54,847 nt of DNA from contig CALGYY010000047.1 of NCBI GenBank assembly GCA_937934705.1, forward strand, positions 1-54,847, read 5' to 3'. Positions 30,300 to 45,171 of this stretch are shown here, one piece after another. The position numbers were made by a program, and so were the translations under genes. Under the pieces are notes generated by a model that worked only from the letters and a program-made list of their open reading frames with translations, was not told where the DNA came from and did no database searches. Position 1 is the first letter of the stretch, and each line of letters opens with the position of its first letter. Origin of the DNA: an uncultured Bacteroidota bacterium. Its GTDB lineage: Bacteria; Bacteroidota; Bacteroidia; Bacteroidales; CAIWKO01.

Positions 30300-31364
30300 T
30301 CAGACGCTTTTAATATGAAGCGGTGAGGCCGGGGAGCCCATTGATTCGCCGTTTGTTCCCGTGTACTTTTGATCCGGGTCAAAGGTAATCCCGATTTTCT
30401 CCAGAATGGGCTCAACTGCTACCTGATGTAATTGCAGGCCCATGTCCCAGGGATCATATCCCAGCAGCAGACCGGCCAGTTCTTCATAGGTCAGCACCGG
30501 TATGCCGTAACCGTTTTCCCCATAGGTCTTACTTTCCATTTCTGCAATTACATATTGCCAGCGGTCGAGGAAATAGGTGCAGCCAGGACAATTGGCAATA
30601 ATCACATCCGGACGATAGGGTTCCATTGAATCAAATTTGCGCTTTGAATTGGTGATGGAATAACCCCGGTTGGATTTCAGCAGGTATTGTCGGAATCCAA
30701 AGCCACAGCAGTGCCTTCGTTCCGGATAATCTACCTGTTCGCCACCCCAGGCATCTGTCAAACCTGCCAGAACGTAAGGATACTCCGCCCCTCCTACACC
30801 TTTTTCCGGGAATATCTTGGCATAATGGCAGCCGATGTGATCCACCACCCTGATGGGTTTGCCGTCGATCTGATTCTTCAGGTAATAGCGAAATTGCTTT
30901 TCGATGTCGAGTCTGAACTTGTAAATAATATCGCTGGTGTGAACCAGGTTTTCAGGTATTTCAAAGCGTTTTCCGCAAGAGCGGTACAGGATATCCCTTG
31001 CCTTTTTTTCCGTATCCGGAAAATGCTTCCATGTTTCGAGCACCTCGGTGTAAATCCCGAATGAGGTAACACAGGAGCAGACAAAATTCCGGTACCCGGC
31101 TTCTGTCATCAGGGCAAACTGCCGGGCCACCACCGACATGGTGGTTTCCATGGGAATCAGTCCCGAATGATAGGCTATTCCGGTGCAGCTCGTTTGTTTC
31201 GGATCATCAAAAATATCTTTATGCAGAACATCTCTTAGGATTTTCATAAAGAGATCTTCAGCTGCCGGAAAGAAATTCTGGCGGATACAACTCCGTGCGA
31301 AGTAGTAATGATCATCTGCAATTTCCTTCTGGTAGCGTTCCCAGTTTTCGTTCTTATTCATCAT
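30300..31364 (-). CDS. hdrB: Heterodisulfide reductase subunit B-like protein (CCG-domain)
   Basis: The ORF is open to 31469 but overlaps hdrC. Candidate starts are 31409, 31379 and 31364. The C-terminal half has a full CCG-domain pattern (GCHY...HCCGFG...NCPGC). The N-terminal half is degenerate (SCTG, VCSC). Confidence 0.8.
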   Translation of the reverse strand: MMNKNENWERYQKEIADDHYYFARSCIRQNFFPAAEDLFMKILRDVLHKDIFDDPKQTSCTGIAYHSGLIPMETTMSVVARQFALMTEAGYRNFVCSCVTSFGIYTEVLETWKHFPDTEKKARDILYRSCGKRFEIPENLVHTSDIIYKFRLDIEKQFRYYLKNQIDGKPIRVVDHIGCHYAKIFPEKGVGGAEYPYVLAGLTDAWGGEQVDYPERRHCCGFGFRQYLLKSNRGYSITNSKRKFDSMEPYRPDVIIANCPGCTYFLDRWQYVIAEMESKTYGENGYGIPVLTYEELAGLLLGYDPWDMGLQLHQVAVEPILEKIGITFDPDQKYTGTNGESMGSPASPLHIKSV

Positions 31365-32061
31365 TTTTCCCGGCTTCATTTCCATGGTAGAGTCTGTTGA
31401 AATATTCATCTTTCCCTTCTCCGAAACGGGAACCTGTCTTACGGGCATATTCCTCCGATGCGGCTTCAATCTTTTCGAAGCGCTTCATGGCGCCGCTTTC
31501 TTCGAATATTTGCCGGAGCTCATTCATCGTAACCTCATCGATGTTCCGCAGTGCCCCTGCCCTGTCCATCTTATAGCTGGCTCCGAGTCTTTCCAATATT
31601 GCTGATCTGTGATCGAGAAACCACTGCCACACGGGTCCCTGTTCCGGATACATATCGAGGCTTATTTCATCAATATAAATACAATAGCCGTATTCAAGCA
31701 AGTGTTCGCCAATGGTCCGCTTCAAAGCAAGTTGTTTACGCCCCTGCCCGCTATCAGTGAAAAAACCTCCTTCGATGGATAAGGCGCGCAAAGCCTGTAT
31801 GATGTAGCAAGGAGTGTTACCCCTCGGGCAGCGGGTTTTGCATGACAGACATTCGCCGCACATCCATATGGTGTCAGAGCGCAGTAATTGTTCGAGAGCT
31901 GCTTCATCCTTTTGCTGCACGAGGTCAATGATCATTCTGGGGTCGTAATCACTGACTGCGGCGGCAGGACAAACGGCGGTACAGGTGCCGCAGTTGAAAC
32001 AGGCTTTAAGCCCTTCTGTGTATCGCGGATCCTGTTCCAGTTTCTGATAGAGTGTTTCCAT
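31354..32061 (-). CDS. hdrC: Heterodisulfide reductase subunit C-like 2x[4Fe-4S] protein
   Basis: 235 aa. CFNCGTCTAVCP and CGECLSCKTRCP motifs with HdrC-like spacing and a helical C-terminal extension. Confidence 0.8.
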   Translation of the reverse strand: METLYQKLEQDPRYTEGLKACFNCGTCTAVCPAAAVSDYDPRMIIDLVQQKDEAALEQLLRSDTIWMCGECLSCKTRCPRGNTPCYIIQALRALSIEGGFFTDSGQGRKQLALKRTIGEHLLEYGYCIYIDEISLDMYPEQGPVWQWFLDHRSAILERLGASYKMDRAGALRNIDEVTMNELRQIFEESGAMKRFEKIEAASEEYARKTGSRFGEGKDEYFNRLYHGNEAGKNDE

Positions 32062-32333
32062 TACTTCTGAATGCGTTTCTGTTTAATGGTGTGCCAGCTG
32101 ATGGCATCAGCAGGGCAGGTTTCGATACAGAGACCGCAGGAATTGCAGTGTTCGTAGATAAACACGAGATAATCAGGGTGGCAATTCACCTCAAGGGAAA
32201 TGCAATATTTCATACATTTTGCACATTGACTGCTCCCGGTCCTGACGATGGCCTGCTGAGGGCATGCTGCGATACAGGTTCCGCACTGGGTACAGAGCAG
32301 GGGGTTCAGTTCAGGTATCTTTTCCTGTTTCAT
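32061..32333 (-). CDS. 2x[4Fe-4S] ferredoxin
   Basis: 90 aa. CTQCGTCIAACP and CNSCGLCIETCP motifs plus extra Cys (CAKCMKYC). Confidence 0.8.
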   Translation of the reverse strand: MKQEKIPELNPLLCTQCGTCIAACPQQAIVRTGSSQCAKCMKYCISLEVNCHPDYLVFIYEHCNSCGLCIETCPADAISWHTIKQKRIQK

Positions 32334-33198
32334 GTCTGTTTTTCATTAATTGATCATACATATTCAAAAGTTTTTTTGATAAGCCGGATCCGGGCAAAAA
32401 CTCGGGTATACTTTTACCCGCGACCATGGCGTGCGTAAAACTCGCGTCGAAGGGAATCCGTCCGAGTAAAAGCCAGTTGTTCTCCAGGCATTCCGTCTCG
32501 ATCTCCCGGTCAGCCATAGTGTTCAGATCAGCTTTATTAATAATGACGGACACCCTGCTTTTTGTTGAATTGACCACTTTCATGACCCTTCTGAAATCAG
32601 CAAGCCCGGAAAGACTGGCTTCAGTGACCACAACCACCTGGTCCACTCCCGTGATGGTGCTGATCACCGGGCATCCGGTTCCCGGTGGCCCATCAAGTAT
32701 GATCAGGGGGAGTTTGTTTCTCAGGGATTCAGCTTTCGCCTTTTCGCGTACCAGGCTGACCAGTTTGCCCGAGTTTTCCTCCCCGGGTGCCAGGCGCCCG
32801 TATACGAGAGTTCCGTAGCGGAAGTCACCCGTAAAGAGGCGGCTGCGGTTTGCCGGGTCCATGGTGATGGCTTGTTCGGGGCAAAGGTGAGCGCATAAGC
32901 GGCATCCTTCACATTTCAGCGGATCGACAATGTAGTCCGGACCGGAAGTCATCACTGCCCCGAAACGGCAGTGTTGATGGCATATGCCGCATGATAAACA
33001 GCGATCAGCCATGATGCGGGCCTTATAACCCGATATATAGATTTCCTCCTCTCTGTGAAGCGGGTTAAACAGCAGGTACTGGTTCGCCGCATCCACATCA
33101 CAATCCGCCAGAACGAGCCGCCCGGCAGCAGTAGCCAATGCGGCAGCGATGCTCGATTTTCCGCTCCCTCCTTTACCGCTGATGACTGCTATTTCCAT
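32311..33198 (-). CDS. MinD/ParA-superfamily P-loop ATPase with inserted 4Fe-4S ferredoxin domain
   Basis: 295 aa. Deviant Walker A SGKGGSGKSS, Cys motifs CLSCGICHQHC and CEGCRLCAHLCP, and DGPPGTGCPV. Confidence 0.85.
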   Translation of the reverse strand: MEIAVISGKGGSGKSSIAAALATAAGRLVLADCDVDAANQYLLFNPLHREEEIYISGYKARIMADRCLSCGICHQHCRFGAVMTSGPDYIVDPLKCEGCRLCAHLCPEQAITMDPANRSRLFTGDFRYGTLVYGRLAPGEENSGKLVSLVREKAKAESLRNKLPLIILDGPPGTGCPVISTITGVDQVVVVTEASLSGLADFRRVMKVVNSTKSRVSVIINKADLNTMADREIETECLENNWLLLGRIPFDASFTHAMVAGKSIPEFLPGSGLSKKLLNMYDQLMKNRHETGKDT

Positions 33199-34049
33199 TT
33201 CTGCACGAATTGAGAGATCAGTTTTCTGAAATCATTCATGATTGCAGGGTGTGACTGAATGCTGAGACTGCCTCTGGCATAATTCGCTGCAATGCCCGCA
33301 TCATATGGAATGCGCATCAGCAGGGGAATTTTCCGCTCAGTGATGTACTTCATCATATCTTCAGTGCCGGTATCGCATCGGTTGATGATGAGCCCGTATG
33401 GTTTCCCTATTTCATTGAGGGTATCGATGCTCTGGCGGAGGTCGCTCAATCCGAAAGGAGTAGGTTCAGCGACAAGGATTACAAAATCCGCGGCGGAAAC
33501 TGTGTGAATAAAAGGGCAGGATGTTCCGGGAGGGGCGTCGAGGATATGCCATTCTGTATCCGGATCAGCAGAACTGATGGCCTGACGGATAACAGGAACA
33601 GGTGACATGGTCCCGGCATGGGTTCTTCCTTCAATGATGACTGTATTGTGATTCCAGCTGTGAACATTAACCCGGCCGGTTTCCCTGTAATCTTCCTTTA
33701 CGGCAGCGGTGTGACATGCATCGATACATGCTCCGCATGAATGGCAAAGTTCCGGTATGATATGAATCATCCCTCCCGGGGGTAAATAGAAAACTGCGTG
33801 GTACTGGCACCATTCAAAACAGCGTCCGCAGAAATCACATTCATCACTGACAATCCGTGGACAGAGCTGGTTCACCGGGATACTCTTTATTTGCGGGGCT
33901 TTAAAAAACAGCAGGCAATCCGGGGCTTCTGCGTCACAATCAGTAAGTGTAACCCGCAAGCCCTTTTCAGCAGCCAGGGCAAAAAGATGAGTTGAGACCA
34001 GGGTTTTGCCCGTTCCTCCCTTTCCGCTGGCCACTGCGAGGGTAAACAT
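33189..34049 (-). CDS. MinD/ParA-superfamily P-loop ATPase with inserted 4Fe-4S ferredoxin domain (paralog)
   Basis: 286 aa. SGKGGTGKT, CDFCGRCFEWC, CHSCGACIDAC and DAPPGTSCPF. Confidence 0.85.
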   Translation of the reverse strand: MFTLAVASGKGGTGKTLVSTHLFALAAEKGLRVTLTDCDAEAPDCLLFFKAPQIKSIPVNQLCPRIVSDECDFCGRCFEWCQYHAVFYLPPGGMIHIIPELCHSCGACIDACHTAAVKEDYRETGRVNVHSWNHNTVIIEGRTHAGTMSPVPVIRQAISSADPDTEWHILDAPPGTSCPFIHTVSAADFVILVAEPTPFGLSDLRQSIDTLNEIGKPYGLIINRCDTGTEDMMKYITERKIPLLMRIPYDAGIAANYARGSLSIQSHPAIMNDFRKLISQFVQKWK

Positions 34050-34053
34050 GAGA

Positions 34054-34491
34054 TCAGTCGTATTTGAGCCGTGTTTCCTCGTCAGCCAGAGCAGGTGCTA
34101 TCAGGCCCTGCCAGTGCCGTGTTTTCCATGTGCCGAGAGCAGCATGTGTAAGGTGGTATTTCTGCGGAATCGGGTGGGTTCCGAAAATCACTTCCAATCC
34201 GAATTTCTCACGAATGTAGCGTTCAAAATAATCGAGCCTTGGACAAGGCGGATAGCCCACCAGACAGCCCGTGGCAAAGTGAATTTTGCTGATCCCGTTT
34301 TTCTTCATCTCTTCCGGAGCATATTCAACATTTCCGCCGGGACACCCCCCGCAGTTTGCGTAAGCAGCAATTTCCACTTCCTCTCCTTTGTATATGGAGA
34401 AAGCGCCTTCCCTTTCCCTGAGTGCCCTGAAGCATTTGCCCCCTGCACAATCGCGGTAACGGTCACAAATGATCACGCCGATTTTAATCAT
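34054..34491 (-). CDS. CGGC-domain protein
   Basis: The track ORF starts at 34512. The Met at 34491 (MIKIGVIICDRYRDCAGGKC) fits the family N-terminus. The eponymous ANCGGCPG motif is present. Confidence 0.8.
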   Translation of the reverse strand: MIKIGVIICDRYRDCAGGKCFRALREREGAFSIYKGEEVEIAAYANCGGCPGGNVEYAPEEMKKNGISKIHFATGCLVGYPPCPRLDYFERYIREKFGLEVIFGTHPIPQKYHLTHAALGTWKTRHWQGLIAPALADEETRLKYD

Positions 34492-34501
34492 AAATGATAT
34501 T

Positions 34502-35350
34502 TTATTGAGCACGATATACTAAAGCAGAACCGACCGGAGCGTGAACACGTTCTGCGATGACATCACACTTCACCATCAGCAGGAAGAAGATTCTCGGATC
34601 CTTTTTATCGATCAGTCCCTCAAGATTGCCTTGTCCCTTCGAAATGATCAGGTCAGCAGTTTCGAAATGATGAAGAAAACCCTTTCCGGATTTGCTGAGG
34701 ATCACAGAGGGGGCGTCATATCCTGTAGATATGATATCTGCCACCACATGCATTTCCGTTTCTTTGGCATCTTCCAGAGTTACATCATTAATTACAGGAC
34801 CTCCCCTTACCGCAAATGTCACGTTGGGGTGCATCATCATTTCGATCAGCAGCTTGTCGAAAACGATTTCTCCGGCATTGTCGCCAAGGTACAATATCTT
34901 TTCCGCTGAGGCGATTTCCTTACGGAGGGCATCTGATTCATCCCTGAAGAAATCATTTTGCATGACCTCTGTAATGGTTTTCTCTGTGTCGAATTCAGAT
35001 AAGGCTCCGTAATCCATGATATTCCCGGCCACTGCCAGTCGCAACGCCATACTGAAAGGGTCCGCGGAATTTAACACGCGGGGTTTCCATCTTTCATAGA
35101 GCTCCATGGCCACCATATTACTTTGCATCTTTTCAAGGGTGAAAGGATCCTGAATCCCTTGCAGGCGGCAGAGATAATGATACAGCTCCCTTTGCACCTC
35201 CGGACTGCCGGGGCAGGGTTCCCTTTTCATGATTTCTGAAAAGAAGGCAGAAAACTCCTGTATCTGATTTTCTGTAAGAGTAAAGCGGTTTTTCAGGCGC
35301 CCGTAACTTCGGCTGAAGCAATCAGCACAGCGCGGATCCAGTCTGCTCAT
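34502..35350 (-). CDS. DUF89 / ARMT1-like damage-control phosphatase family protein
   Basis: The ORF is open to 35437 but overlaps nifX-like by 86 bp. The Met at 35350 lies 1 nt after the upstream stop. Motifs LGDNAGEIVFDKLL and IISKGQGNLEGL. Confidence 0.8.
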   Translation of the reverse strand: MSRLDPRCADCFSRSYGRLKNRFTLTENQIQEFSAFFSEIMKREPCPGSPEVQRELYHYLCRLQGIQDPFTLEKMQSNMVAMELYERWKPRVLNSADPFSMALRLAVAGNIMDYGALSEFDTEKTITEVMQNDFFRDESDALRKEIASAEKILYLGDNAGEIVFDKLLIEMMMHPNVTFAVRGGPVINDVTLEDAKETEMHVVADIISTGYDAPSVILSKSGKGFLHHFETADLIISKGQGNLEGLIDKKDPRIFFLLMVKCDVIAERVHAPVGSALVYRAQ

Positions 35351-35351
35351 A

Positions 35352-35690
35352 TCAGTGGTCGCAATAATTGGATTCAAGCTTGAGTGAGCCGTCAAGAAAG
35401 GCCTGAACAAGCTCCTTTGCACTTTGTATCGGGGCACCTACAAAAACATTGATCTTTTGTTCCTTAAAAAGGTCGATGGCTCTTTGGCCCATACCTCCGG
35501 CAATCACGTCCGTAACACCATACTGGGCAATCCAGCGCGGATAGAGTCCGGGCTGATGCTCCGGTGGTGTTACATGAATTTCGGCACCCGCAACTCCGTT
35601 ATCTACCGTGATGATCGCGAAATTCTCACAATGTCCGAAATGGGGACAAAGCACCCTGTTTTCCAATGGAACAGCAATTTTCTTTTGCAT
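35352..35690 (-). CDS. NifX/NifB-C-terminal type (dinitrogenase Fe-Mo cofactor family) cluster-carrier protein
   Basis: 112 aa. MQKKIAVPLENRVLCPHFGHCENFAIITVD and GVTDVIAGGMGQRAIDLF are typical of this small-domain family. Confidence 0.85.
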   Translation of the reverse strand: MQKKIAVPLENRVLCPHFGHCENFAIITVDNGVAGAEIHVTPPEHQPGLYPRWIAQYGVTDVIAGGMGQRAIDLFKEQKINVFVGAPIQSAKELVQAFLDGSLKLESNYCDH

Positions 35691-35753
35691 GCATTAAATG
35701 TTTGAATGTTAAAAAAAGGGAGAGGGAGGGGGCAAAAGCCCCCGCCCGGGGAC

Positions 35754-35993
35754 TTATTCAGTCCCTCTGAAACGGTTCCTGCGGCCGGTTCCGCGACCAC
35801 GGGCACAAACCCTAAGACCGAAGCCATGTCCCCGTCCACCACCGTCCTTTCTACGCCCTCTTCCCTGAAAAACACCAGAAACTTCAGCATCCTGCTGATT
35901 TGAAGGGCTGCAAATAATTCCTGTGCAGCGTCCCATTTTGCGACCGGTCATGGGACCCTCCCCGGCCGGACCGCGTTGATCGAAATTTGGCAT
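35754..35993 (-). CDS. DUF5320 family protein (Arg/Gly-rich)
   Basis: 79 aa. MPNFDQRGPAGEGPMTGRKMGRC N-terminus followed by an RG-rich tail, the pattern I associate with DUF5320. Confidence 0.7.
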   Translation of the reverse strand: MPNFDQRGPAGEGPMTGRKMGRCTGIICSPSNQQDAEVSGVFQGRGRRKDGGGRGHGFGLRVCARGRGTGRRNRFRGTE

Positions 35994-36007
35994 ATGCTCT
36001 CCTTTCT

Positions 36008-36328
36008 TCAGTTGTGATCGAGTAAATCAATCACCTCCTGAATAGTTTTATCTTCTGTTTTCATGACGATCATTTGAATTTTCAGGCTATCGAGCAGAGA
36101 TTTTATCTTGATCCCGAACTCGCCTGAAACGATCTTCTTCACCCCTTTTGATGCCAGGAAGCGCACGGAAGAGGGACCTGCGCCTTCTTCTGCTTCCTTG
36201 TTGGGATTGGGCATGATTTCAACCGATTTTAGCTCCGTATCATAAATCACAAAATAGGAGCATCTGCCAAAACGCCCGTCAATTGTGCTGTTTAGATCCT
36301 TTCCTGTACTCGTGATGGCTGTTTTCAT
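36008..36328 (-). CDS. NifX/NifB-C-terminal type cluster-carrier protein (paralog)
   Basis: 106 aa. IDGRFGRCSYFVIYD and GVKKIVSGEFGIKIKSLL motifs. Confidence 0.85.
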   Translation of the reverse strand: MKTAITSTGKDLNSTIDGRFGRCSYFVIYDTELKSVEIMPNPNKEAEEGAGPSSVRFLASKGVKKIVSGEFGIKIKSLLDSLKIQMIVMKTEDKTIQEVIDLLDHN

Positions 36329-36340
36329 TGGATACTTGGT

Positions 36341-36823
36341 TTATGGATTCATCTGCCCCCGCCTTAATCTTCTTCTCCTGCAGGATTTCTCCTGAATTTC
36401 TTCCGGCACTTCTGTATAGTTGGAAACGCCTGAATGACCACAGAGAGGGCACTCCTCTACAGAACTGGCCTTATCCGGGTGATTGAAAAAACAACCACAG
36501 CCCTCGCAGGTATACCACTCACTGTCGAAGAAGATCTTCCCGCCCTCGATAATGATCTGTTTCCCGTTCACAAAAGCGTCTGCAATTTTCTGCAGAGCGC
36601 GGGCATAAATTCTGGTGAGCGTTGGTCTTGACACTTCCATGGCCAGGGCTGCCTCAACCTGACTGAAACCCTTGTGATCGCAAAGCCTCAATGCCTCATA
36701 TTCCTCAAAATGCAGAAACACCTTCTCCCGGGTCAAAGCCCTGTCAGAAGCTCCGTAAGGTTTAAATCCTGCAATAAGGGGCGGATCACTGATCTTTCTG
36801 AGTCTTTTTGGTCTGGGACACAT
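36341..36823 (-). CDS. DUF134 (UPF0251) predicted DNA-binding protein with C-terminal zinc ribbon
   Basis: 160 aa. MCPRPKRLRKISDPPLIAGFKPYG, HTH-like EYEALRLCDHKGFSQVEAALAMEVSRPTLTRIYARA, then CEGCGC...CPLCGH. Confidence 0.85.
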   Translation of the reverse strand: MCPRPKRLRKISDPPLIAGFKPYGASDRALTREKVFLHFEEYEALRLCDHKGFSQVEAALAMEVSRPTLTRIYARALQKIADAFVNGKQIIIEGGKIFFDSEWYTCEGCGCFFNHPDKASSVEECPLCGHSGVSNYTEVPEEIQEKSCRRRRLRRGQMNP

Positions 36824-36827
36824 AATA

Positions 36828-36867
36828 TGAACATTTGTTCACCACAAAGGTAATGAACATTTGTTCA
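36828..36867 (-). promoter_or_regulatory. Twin operator: two identical 14-bp perfect palindromes TGAACAtTTGTTCA (TGAACA-TT-TGTTCA) flanking a TAccTTTG -7-type box
   Basis: tgaacatttgttca occurs at 36828-36841 and 36854-36867. On the - strand TACCTTTG (36845-36852) sits between them. The proximal palindrome ends 4 nt from the DUF134 ATG. Confidence 0.6.
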
Positions 36868-36905
36868 AATGCAAGAAAAAATATCATTTTTTTTCGCCGG
36901 GCCTT

Positions 36906-43441: not shown

Positions 43442-43699
43442 TTATGCTTTTTTCAGAAAAAGTCTGGAATAGCTGTCTTCCTCCACGATGCCAAGGAACT
43501 GGTGTTCCATTTTTTCGCACCATTTCGGGATGTCGTGTTTGGTTCCTTCGTCAGACGAAAGGATCTCCATGATCTCGCCGGATTCAATATCTCCGATGGC
43601 TTTTTTGGCTGCAAGCAGTGGTCCGGGGCATGCTGTTCCGCGGGCGTCAACAAGTTTGTTGGAGGTGAGGTTTCTGAGTTCTTCGGGTGTCATAATCAT
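43442..43699 (-). CDS. tusA: TusA/SirA-family sulfurtransferase
   Basis: 85 aa. DARGTACPGPLLAAKKAI active-site Cys motif and a two-layer alpha/beta-sized protein. Confidence 0.85.
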   Translation of the reverse strand: MIMTPEELRNLTSNKLVDARGTACPGPLLAAKKAIGDIESGEIMEILSSDEGTKHDIPKWCEKMEHQFLGIVEEDSYSRLFLKKA

Positions 43700-44490: not shown

Positions 44491-45171
44491 ATGGCAACTC
44501 ACCTTTGTACTTCCTGCCCGCTCAAATCTCCTGCTGCCCGCAACCTGACAGATGAGGAACTCGGGATACTTGAAAAGAACAGCGCCTTGGTGCATTTTAA
44601 GAAAGGAGAGATCATTTTCCGGGAGGATGCATTATCGACCAATGTGGCCTATCTGCGGACCGGTATTGCCAAGATTCACAAAAGGGGGCCAGCTGCGGAT
44701 AAGATCCTCAGGGTTGTGAAAGCGCCCACCTATCTGGGTATCCCGACCAGTATGGGAGAAAAGATCAACCAGTTTTCTGCGACTGCACTGGTGGAAACAA
44801 GTGTCTGTTTTATCGACACCAATCTGTTCCGCAATTTTATTTTCCAGAACGGTGCATTTGCTTACGAAATCATCATGGAGCTTTGCCGTCATGAGCTCAA
44901 TGACTACCAGCGTTTCACTTCACAGTCCCAAAAACAGGTTCCGGGTATTGTTGCCGAGACCCTGCTTTGTTTCTCGGAAAAGATTTTCGCCAACACCCGT
45001 TTTCAGTTTCCGCTCACCCGCGGAGAGATCGGGGACCTCGTAGGAACCTCCCGCGAAAGTGTAAGCAGGGTTCTCACCGATCTGGCCGGTGAAGGGATTA
45101 TTACCTATGACGCCAGGGAGATCACGATTCTGGATCCGGAGCGTTTGAAGCAGATCAGTGATAAGGGTTGA
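44491..45171 (+). CDS. Crp/Fnr family transcriptional regulator
   Basis: 226 aa. cNMP-binding-like beta-barrel (FKKGEIIFREDA), C-terminal HTH (LTRGEIGDLVGTSRESVSRVLTDL) and an N-terminal CTSC pair. Confidence 0.85.
   Translation: MATHLCTSCPLKSPAARNLTDEELGILEKNSALVHFKKGEIIFREDALSTNVAYLRTGIAKIHKRGPAADKILRVVKAPTYLGIPTSMGEKINQFSATALVETSVCFIDTNLFRNFIFQNGAFAYEIIMELCRHELNDYQRFTSQSQKQVPGIVAETLLCFSEKIFANTRFQFPLTRGEIGDLVGTSRESVSRVLTDLAGEGIITYDAREITILDPERLKQISDKG

Follow-up and report, generated by a model that had tools for sequence, protein, structure and literature searches.

The closest described relative of the gene cassette treated here is the orange protein (ORP) cluster of Desulfovibrio vulgaris, whose description dates from 2011 according to later papers that cite it (PMC6345978, PMC8359166). 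In the Hildenborough strain, the cluster comprises orp3-orp4-orp5 and orp7-orp8-orp9 (DVU2103-DVU2109; PMC6345978, PMC8359166). Orp3 and Orp4 are MinD-like and carry two [4Fe-4S] ferredoxin motifs apiece; Orp5 is a homologue of a small [2Fe-2S]-binding protein, Orp8 is an orange-protein homologue, and Orp9 is MrpORP (PMC6345978). The Di-Nase domain of Desulfovibrio MrpORP has CxHFGHCE and CDH motifs and binds a [3Fe-4S] cluster (Pardoux et al., PMC6345978), and MrpORP passes clusters to apo-aconitase and to apo-Orp3-Orp4-Orp8 (PMC6345978). The orp operons are driven by sigma-54 and OrpR, a [4Fe-4S] PAS redox sensor; they are expressed solely at low redox potential, and the role of the system is called “still unclear,” with cell division suggested (PMC8359166). 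The subject of this study is a related cassette in contig CALGYY010000047.1 of an uncultured Bacteroidales bacterium (positions 1 to 54,847; hereafter “the window”), where one operon joins ORP-like genes to a ferredoxin and to proteins resembling the HdrC and HdrB subunits of heterodisulfide reductase (together, HdrCB). The reading that we tentatively favor, as plausible and well short of assured, is that an ORP-type system under DUF134 control, which handles Fe-S and sulfane sulfur, has recruited HdrCB as a ferredoxin-driven S-S reductase module.

The original prediction had regarded the cassette as an orphan group of widespread unknowns. Judged by its protein sequences, it is instead the Bacteroidales form of the named and partly characterized ORP cluster, under different regulation. 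The NCBIfam model of MrpORP (NF041136, “iron-sulfur cluster carrier protein MrpORP”) matches the second of two NifX-like proteins over the C-terminal Di-Nase domain (positions 264-365 of 365) with an E-value of 1.2e-32, and this protein displays both conserved motifs of that domain: CPHFGHCE toward its N-terminal end and a terminal CDH. NifX-like 1, a single-domain protein of the NifX fold, has TM1290 (1RDU, 3.7e-16), MTH1175 (1.5e-10) and the ORP of D. gigas (2WFB, 4.4e-7) among its matches in the Protein Data Bank (PDB). The resemblance extends to a pair of MinD-like ATPases (MinD-Fdx 1 and 2), each with two [4Fe-4S] ferredoxin motifs, to an occurrence in anaerobes only, and to adjacent Mrp genes: the operon itself is without an Mrp domain, and a separate Mrp gene adjoins the cassette in many related loci. 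That Fe-S clusters are bound or passed on by such families had been considered plausible, and this has been shown experimentally for the families (PMC6345978, PMC5524996). The window departs from the Desulfovibrio cluster in that its Di-Nase domain is unfused to Mrp, unlike that of MrpORP; no Orp5-type small protein was identified in the operon, which has DUF5320, CGGC and DUF89 genes instead; and a ferredoxin-HdrC-HdrB module, not reported for Desulfovibrio, is included. The regulation differs as well, with DUF134, a Bacteroidetes promoter and GAAC-N4-GTTC elements in place of sigma-54, OrpR and IHF; no sigma-54 activator was found in the window.

The operon runs from 36823 to 30300 on the minus strand as 11 co-directional open reading frames (ORFs; Table 1). 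From DUF134 to HdrB, the junctions measure +12, +14, +63, +1, +10, +4, -10, -23, -1 (TAATG) and -8 bp, values that depend on the ATG starts picked for DUF89 (35350), CGGC (34491) and HdrB (31361); the HdrB start is identical to that of a database protein of 353 amino acids (aa; P0001). The negative values are overlaps of MinD-Fdx 1 with MinD-Fdx 2 (10 bp), of the ferredoxin gene with MinD-Fdx 2 (23 bp) and with HdrC (1 bp), and of HdrC, which lies directly 5' of HdrB, with HdrB (8 bp). A convergent methyltransferase gene stops 10 bp away from HdrB, and we therefore place the end of the operon there. The original prediction of 11 genes with overlaps or 1-14 bp gaps, apart from one gap of 63 bp, was reproduced; every domain name that it gave was confirmed by Pfam (DUF134, Nitro_FeMo-Co twice, DUF5320, ARMT1-like/DUF89, CGGC, CbiA/ParA with Fer4 twice, a Fer4 ferredoxin, Fer4_8 of the HdrC type, and CCG); and the physical coupling of the cassette to HdrC-HdrB is borne out by the overlapping MinD-Fdx 2, ferredoxin, HdrC and HdrB genes. 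Close gene spacing is normal for any operon and is unremarkable alone. The signal goes beyond chance because the same neighbors recur, in shuffled order, in other genomes.

Table 1. Features of the operon and of its 5' region, in positions of the window.
Feature	Position	Strand	Evidence
Promoter/operator region 5' of the DUF134 gene	36824..36905	-	Palindromes and -7 box
DUF134 (UPF0251) helix-turn-helix (HTH) protein	36341..36823	-	Pfam PF02001 1.1e-21; weak Sigma70_r4, HTH_3
NifX-like 1, single-domain Di-Nase protein of the Orp8/orange-protein/MTH1175 type	36008..36328	-	Pfam PF02579 1.9e-16
DUF5320, small Gly/Arg-rich cationic protein	35754..35993	-	Pfam PF17253 5.2e-9
Sole 63-bp intergenic gap, GC hairpin	35691..35753	-	RNA folding
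NifX-like 2, stand-alone MrpORP-type Di-Nase domain	35352..35690	-	NCBIfam NF041136 1.2e-32
DUF89/ARMT1-like metal-dependent phosphatase (“damage-control phosphatase” family)	34502..35350	-	Pfam PF01937 6.5e-57
CGGC-domain cysteine-rich protein	34054..34491	-	Pfam PF08821 1e-28
MinD-Fdx 1, MinD/ParA P-loop ATPase with 2x[4Fe-4S] insert	33189..34049	-	Pfam CbiA, ParA, Fer4
MinD-Fdx 2, MinD/ParA P-loop ATPase with ferredoxin insert	32311..33198	-	Pfam ParA, CbiA, Fer4
2x[4Fe-4S] ferredoxin, 90 aa	32061..32333	-	Pfam Fer4 twice
HdrC-like subunit, two CxxCxxCxxxCP motifs	31354..32061	-	Pfam Fer4_8 1.8e-11
HdrB-like subunit	30300..31361	-	Pfam CCG, single match

Related loci were sampled from other genomes and metagenomes and are designated by L-numbers. 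An unbiased sample of 80 metagenome loci was anchored on the HdrB-like protein, of which homologues of ~75% identity are numerous in metagenome-assembled genomes (MAGs) of Bacteroidales; sequences of at least 67% identity were taken as the main clade. HdrC stands directly 5' of HdrB in 73-74 of these 80 loci. Cassette genes lie near HdrB in 27 of the 32 main-clade loci with at least 8 kb of flank (DUF134 in 26); 19 loci have such genes to either side of HdrB, variously ordered. The most frequent arrangement is DUF134-NifX-DUF5320-NifX-DUF89-radical SAM-(def)-HdrC-HdrB-CoADR-like-CGGC-MinDFdx-MinDFdx-Mrp, in which CoADR stands for CoA-disulfide reductase and HdrCB is internal to the cassette. 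The HdrCB-terminal order of the window is thus one of several; L085, L111 and L134 also have orders other than the commonest. Mangrovibacterium has DUF134-NifX-DUF5320-NifX-MinDFdx-MinDFdx-def-Mrp-4HBT-TrmO-x-CoADR/rhodanese-DUF4405-HdrC-HdrB, a 4.9-Mb genome has DUF134-NifX-Cys_Met_Meta_PP-Fd-HdrC-HdrB-4HBT-NifX-NifX, and a “Bacteroidetes GWE2” MAG has NifX-DUF5320-NifX-MinDFdx-MinDFdx-x-HdrC-HdrB-Cys_Met_Meta_PP-OsmC-Mrp. The linkage of cassette and HdrCB that had been proposed from the window is thus kept across a Bacteroidales clade despite rearrangement of the gene order. It is real, but confined to one lineage: in a sister HdrB clade of 64-66% identity (L153-L164), cassette genes were found within 10 kb in none of ten loci, and the two clades share all eight invariant cysteines. 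The sister-clade context (e.g., L159 11065-12096, L161 3322-5139) comprises HdrC-HdrB, a 343-aa Pyr_redox_2 flavoprotein and a 605-aa HdrD-like protein with two CCG domains. A literature search returned no paper linking Hdr-like genes to the ORP cluster.

The converse question is whether such cassettes attract CCG-domain genes. A MinD-Fdx alignment built from 50%-identity representatives was used to collect a second set of 80 loci, with 10-kb flanks and one genome per species; ~27 are from Bacteroidota and the rest from Desulfobacterota, Dehalococcoidia, Planctomycetota, Clostridia, Omnitrophota, Thorarchaeota and others. Isolates of Mangrovibacterium, Maribellus, Geofilum and Plebeiibacterium are among the sources of this set. 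Neighbors were counted by profile searches and by clustering of all ORFs, with Pfam checks. NifX-like genes accompany MinD-Fdx in 72-76 of these loci, DUF134 in 29-33, DUF5320 in 24-30, DUF89 in 21 (and in 17 of the 80 HdrB-anchored loci), and CGGC in 8 (16 of the HdrB-anchored loci), counts that bear out the predicted co-occurrence of these families. Other recurrent neighbors are metallo-beta-lactamase fold proteins (19/80), NifU_N scaffolds (16/80), CoADR fused to rhodanese (15/80, in many phyla), OrpR-like sigma-54 activators (15/80, in phyla other than the window's), FmdB zinc-ribbon proteins (15/80) and radical SAM proteins (14/80). A CCG-domain gene of any kind occurs within 10 kb in 6 of the 80. 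Three of the six are orthologues of the window's HdrB (L007, L017, L075), all in Bacteroidota. Two others are unrelated to it: the one in a Desulfonema MAG (L027) is a canonical two-CCG HdrB, encoded on the opposite strand, and the one in Smithella (L073) is an HdrD-like protein. A Dehalococcoidales CCG protein (L036) was considered as a distant HdrB-family member and rejected, as BLASTP shows no similarity beyond the motif. Outside Bacteroidota, CCG genes are found near cassettes at about the level that chance would give, on a rough estimate of the number of CCG genes in such anaerobes; the enrichment expected in the original prediction is largely missing beyond one lineage. Both samples also contain several large “conserved families” of 60-180-aa ORFs, which were left out of the counts; these are probably antisense shadows of the MinD-Fdx, HdrB and HdrC genes and a trap for naive ORF clustering. 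The two samples thus yield a marked asymmetry: from HdrB to the cassette the association holds in 27 of 32 loci, and from the cassette to an HdrB of the window's type in 3 of 80. Such an asymmetry is what one would expect if an accessory module had been added to a system that is itself autonomous.

The HdrB- and HdrC-like proteins were compared with those of methanogens. The HdrB-like protein is similar over its full length to methanogen HdrB (9SFI, 1e-27; 5ODC, 5e-24; 8RVU is a further HdrABC structure), HdrC is also similar and shares two CxxCxxCxxxCP motifs, and the C-terminal CX(n)CCGX(m)CXXC motif of HdrB is complete (C178, C218, C219, G220, C258, C261). Alignments show that the N-terminal motif is degenerate, keeping three of five cysteines (C25, C59 and C97 are its only invariant ones), so that the protein departs from the two-motif CX31-39CCX35-36CXXC pattern. 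Both subunits score far under the NCBIfam equivalog cut-offs (132 bits against 450 for HdrB; 3.7e-28 and 98 bits against 350 for HdrC). Across the sampled loci, HdrA is no constant neighbor, the HdrA-like gene 6 kb upstream in the window notwithstanding. To our knowledge, coenzymes M and B (CoM, CoB) are not expected in a Bacteroidales host. By its sequence, then, the protein is not a canonical HdrB. A degenerate N-terminal domain is known from some CCG proteins (Hamann et al., PMC2754724), and M. marburgensis HdrB produced in E. coli holds, after chemical reconstitution, a [4Fe-4S] cluster with a CoM-HDR-like electron paramagnetic resonance signal (PMC2754724). The assignment of non-cubane clusters to the CCG domains of HdrB would apply to the intact C-terminal motif and not to the degenerate N-terminal one; Pfam returns a single CCG match.

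The reading of HdrCB as a recruited redox module envisions the ferredoxin-HdrC-HdrB-like proteins as a working component of the ORP system, not its client. Low-potential electrons from the ferredoxin would cross HdrC by way of its two [4Fe-4S] clusters and arrive at HdrB's one intact CCG site, where a persulfide, a polysulfide or a CoA-type disulfide would have its S-S bond reduced. The resulting sulfide or thiol, with iron, might then be bound by the NifX-fold and cationic proteins in the form of Fe-S or thiometallate species, the stand-alone MrpORP-type Di-Nase domain being expected to bind a [3Fe-4S]-type cluster, and the MinD-Fdx ATPases may supply ATP-dependent cluster or electron transfer. 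We infer this direction of the relationship, module rather than client, from the asymmetry, the mid-cassette position of HdrCB, the recurrence of CoADR (with or without rhodanese) and the variability of the gene before HdrC. In related loci, HdrC is not always accompanied by the 2x[4Fe-4S] ferredoxin, and the gene 5' of HdrC varies; swapped genes at this position (ferredoxin, DUF4405) fit the reading, since interchangeable electron-input parts typify modular redox enzymes. A DUF4405 membrane protein is encoded 5' of HdrC in L001 (8554-9297) and, by neighbor count, directly 5' in four more loci; 11 of the 80 HdrB-anchored loci, among them L125 (4534-5256), have a member of the family. This neighbor hints at a membrane-anchored, quinone-linked version of HdrCB.

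Of the 80 HdrB-anchored loci, 14 have a CoADR-like gene 3' of HdrB (adjacent in 8). CoADR, often fused to rhodanese, neighbors many related loci and is the commonest such neighbor outside Bacteroidota; its best NCBIfam matches are below cut-offs. CoADR-rhodanese proteins of the persulfide/polysulfide reductase type reduce S-S bonds, as a CCG site would be expected to do; they differ in being NAD(P)H flavoenzymes without an Fe-S cluster, and the window has none. Genes of sulfur metabolism (Cys_Met_Meta_PP, DsrE2, PAPS reductase) are nearby in L002, L003 and the window and, together with the NifU_N scaffolds, they indicate sulfide/persulfide and cluster chemistry. A gene for a Crp/Fnr-family regulator (44491-45171, plus strand) is divergent from the DsrE2-like gene of the window, and a Crp-type regulator is also found near HdrCB in L002. 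Many of the recurrent neighbors fall outside the Fe-S proteins (CoA-disulfide reductase, DUF89, thioesterase, deformylase, peroxiredoxin), which weakens a view of the neighborhood as a list of maturation clients.

Across 98 diverse MinD-Fdx homologues, P-loop residues G9, K10, G12, G14 and K15 are invariant, as are seven of the eight cysteines of the insert, the eighth (C74) being present in at least 90%. The genes are paired in nearly all of the 80 MinD-Fdx-anchored loci. An AlphaFold (AF2) model of MinD-Fdx 1 (mean confidence, pLDDT, 96.5) has MinD, ATPase-type HypB, ApbC, FleN and NifH as its nearest solved folds in Foldseek (TM-score ~0.56-0.61); the ferredoxin insert is found in no solved structure. 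Carriers of the Mrp/NBP35/ApbC group and ATPase-type HypB share the SIMIBI P-loop fold and a proposed ATP-dependent transfer of metal centers. They differ from MinD-Fdx, in which an eight-Cys ferredoxin domain interrupts the fold after its first quarter. The fold cannot separate carrier, reductase-activator and positioning roles, because the PDB neighbors score alike.

For the storage step, the nearest precedent is IssA of Pyrococcus furiosus, in which a NifX-fold domain (IPR003731) with a cationic, Gly-rich, unstructured tail stores iron and sulfide as thioferrate and rebuilds ferredoxin clusters (PMC5524996). This system, too, is that of an anaerobe handling sulfide and iron. Whereas the tail of IssA is on the same polypeptide, the cationic sequence of the window is a separate product, that of DUF5320 (isoelectric point, pI, 11.6; 42% Gly+Arg), which is encoded between the genes of two NifX-fold proteins that are acidic or neutral (pI 6.6 and 5.9) and without a cationic tail. 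By analogy, DUF5320 could act as an IssA-like tail in trans, with a putative role in thioferrate binding. DUF5320 genes in L085, L104, L134, L006, L008, L010, L024 and L075 are often tandem duplicates between two NifX-fold genes, and 17 of 80 cassettes encode a related Gly/Arg-rich protein of 76 aa with a CxxC...CxxC ribbon and no Pfam match. The DUF89 protein matches the NCBIfam model damage_ctl_Phtase at 6e-51, under that model's cut-off. Literature searches on DUF134, DUF5320, COG1149 and COG1433 produced nothing useful, and no experimental function for DUF134, DUF5320 or CGGC was found in the literature searched.

A conserved double operator precedes DUF134, the first gene after it. The exact palindrome TGAACAAATGTTCA occurs at 36867-36854 and at 36841-36828, with no third copy in the window. 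Between the two, in the 82-bp spacer 5' of DUF134, sits TACCTTTG (36852-36845), which fits what we take to be the -7 consensus of Bacteroidetes, TAnnTTTG. In ~18 related loci, DUF134 genes are preceded by the same succession of palindrome, TAtCTTTG, palindrome and ATG. The window and L085, L088, L090, L092, L093, L098, L104, L106, L111, L115, L119, L120, L121, L124, L131 and L139 have GAAC-N4-GTTC palindromes ~26 bp apart, with the TAnnTTTG box bracketed between them. An exact GAAC-N4-GTTC was present within 120 bp 5' of DUF134 in 14 of 33 and in 6 of 30 cases; the background is 0.44% of random 120-bp windows. The stricter pattern TGAACANNNTGTTCA was tried and set aside: it matched almost no other locus, and the relaxed core is the conserved element. 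A generic scan for sigma-70 promoters and terminators, which is ill-suited to Bacteroidetes, gave counts at the level of shuffled sequence. Exact matches also stand directly 5' of hdrC in L119 and L128 and 5' of some DUF89, DUF5320 and NifX genes; the presence of the operator before these genes and DUF134 indicates one regulon. A weak match was noted at 43496-43507, 116 bp 5' of mvhD.

The operator straddles the -7 box, an arrangement that suggests repression; the simplest candidate for the repressor is the DUF134 protein itself. Transcription of the genes as a single operon would thus start at a Bacteroidetes-type promoter between two operators, and we predict that the DUF134 protein is probably an autoregulating repressor or sensor of the operon. 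Its C-terminal 60 residues contain a CEGCGC...CPLCGH cysteine cluster, a weak DUF7128 match and a basic tail; the cysteine cluster could be a sensor of metal, of Fe-S clusters or of thiols. A literature search found no paper describing a DUF134 operator. Within the operon, the 63-bp gap after DUF5320 would fold into a hairpin (GGGGGC-UUUU-GCCCCC), with a run of seven U residues beginning 11 nt past the extended stem. Its minimum free energy is -21.3 kcal/mol (z = -1.7 vs. shuffles), a value not significant alone, and the terminator scan did not call it. It is possibly a partial terminator or an RNA-stabilizing element, and it might attenuate read-through, setting expression of the first three genes relative to the others.

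Several other explanations of the linkage must be weighed. The original prediction was that the cassette is machinery dedicated to assembling, inserting or carrying the non-cubane, CCG-bound cluster of HdrB, and this now appears improbable. Parts of the idea stand: the Bacteroidales clade keeps the linkage, NifU_N and Mrp genes occur in many cassettes, and the families handle Fe-S species, MrpORP transferring clusters to apo-proteins (PMC6345978) and NifX-fold proteins carrying complex ones (PMC5524996). Recombinant HdrB and SdhE were fully loaded only after reconstitution in vitro, which leaves room for a helper in vivo; chemical reconstitution is enough for the CoM-HDR-like cluster (PMC2754724). 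An asymmetric association would likewise be given by a maturase with several clients. A maturase dedicated to HdrB clusters is nonetheless the weaker reading, because no CCG gene lies within 10 kb of 74 of the 80 cassettes sampled across phyla, because the sister HdrB clade has the cassette adjacent in none of ten loci despite the same eight invariant cysteines, and because HdrB has a lone intact CCG motif. CCG proteins of the GlpC, GlcF, LutA and SdhE families are found in aerobes and facultative anaerobes without this anaerobe-specific cassette, which also counts against a maturase, as do the unrelated nature of the three non-orthologous CCG neighbors and the presence of non-Fe-S enzymes alongside HdrCB in the cassette. 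The OrpR regulon of D. vulgaris consists of the orp operons only, with no Hdr gene reported (PMC8359166). What survives is a restricted form, in which ORP-like carriers load HdrCB in Bacteroidales. A more serious rival, somewhat unlikely in our estimation, is co-regulation alone: a DUF134 stimulon responding to low redox potential, sulfide or iron would gather genes with independent functions (ORP-like proteins, HdrCB, CoADR, peroxiredoxin, deformylase, thioesterase and DUF89) by a shared regulator and not by a pathway. The heterogeneous and variable set of neighbors gives this explanation its weight, as do the differing immediate neighbors of HdrCB among loci, the operator 5' of several different genes, and the control of Desulfovibrio ORP expression purely by redox potential (PMC8359166). 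It accounts less readily for the stop/start overlaps that couple MinD-Fdx 2, ferredoxin, HdrC and HdrB in the window, and for the retention of HdrCB within a few kb of the cassette despite repeated rearrangement (19 two-sided loci); selection of that kind is usual for interacting products.

HdrCB might, alternatively, belong to the genes upstream. On the minus strand from 44298 to 36906 are genes for DsrE2-like, MvhD, HdrL-like (a 931-aa GltD/HdrA fusion), HdrA2-like and QmoC-like (an HdrC-type Fe-S domain with a membrane domain) proteins, and the cassette could have been inserted between the halves of a complete Hdr/Qmo-type, possibly bifurcating complex. The genes are co-directional, with 82 bp between QmoC-like and DUF134, and HdrA normally partners HdrBC; a DsrE2-MvhD-HdrA-type module lies beside the cassette or HdrCB in L006, L096 and L132 as well, the only such cases among the sampled loci. 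We nevertheless find this account hard to credit, for most HdrB-anchored loci have neither HdrA nor MvhD within 10 kb (MvhD in 2 of 80), against cassette genes in 27 of 32; the QmoC-like protein already brings its own HdrC-like domain, and a promoter and an operator of its own precede DUF134. A role in cell division or positioning, as first proposed for Desulfovibrio ORP, with HdrCB an unrelated passenger, is very improbable. The ATPases do have a MinD-type fold, and Desulfovibrio orpR mutants have morphological defects and MrpORP resides at the cell pole (PMC8359166, PMC6345978), but the recurrent neighbors are redox, Fe-S and sulfur proteins with no division gene among them, and the original authors themselves call the role “still unclear” (PMC8359166).

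The recruited-module reading has its own difficulties. The exact operator is 5' of hdrC in just 2 of 79 cases, and the DUF134 protein is a putative, if probable, binder of it. The substrate proposed for the window's HdrB-like protein is putative. Were HdrCB one client of a general carrier system, the same linkage would result, and a mere shared regulator would give that pattern as well. An “analogous role” of CoADR and HdrCB is conjectural, because the two often co-occur and do not replace each other. For the ORP complex of Desulfovibrio itself, a cell-division role has been proposed (PMC8359166).

A bolder form of the recruited-module reading, which we consider unlikely, would make the ORP-like proteins, HdrCB and CoADR of Bacteroidales one ATP- and ferredoxin-dependent machine that converts sulfane sulfur (persulfide or polysulfide) and iron into protein-bound Fe-S or thioferrate-like species on a “split IssA” (NifX-fold proteins plus DUF5320), under an Fe-S- or thiol-sensing DUF134 repressor. 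If true, this would be the first defined biochemical function for the anaerobe-wide ORP complex, DUF134 and DUF5320, and the first defined function for a CCG enzyme outside energy metabolism.

The comparison corrects an over-reading, as adjacency in one window does not mean that a cassette matures CCG clusters in general. For research on Hdr proteins, it delineates a conserved bacterial HdrCB family (~75% identity across Bacteroidales) that is independent of HdrA and has one intact CCG site. The conserved double operator makes DUF134 a testable regulator with a definable regulon. The ORP cluster spans anaerobes of many phyla, and its role is still called unclear after fifteen years; an enzyme of predictable chemistry inside the cluster, S-S reduction at a CCG site, offers a handle on what the ORP system processes.

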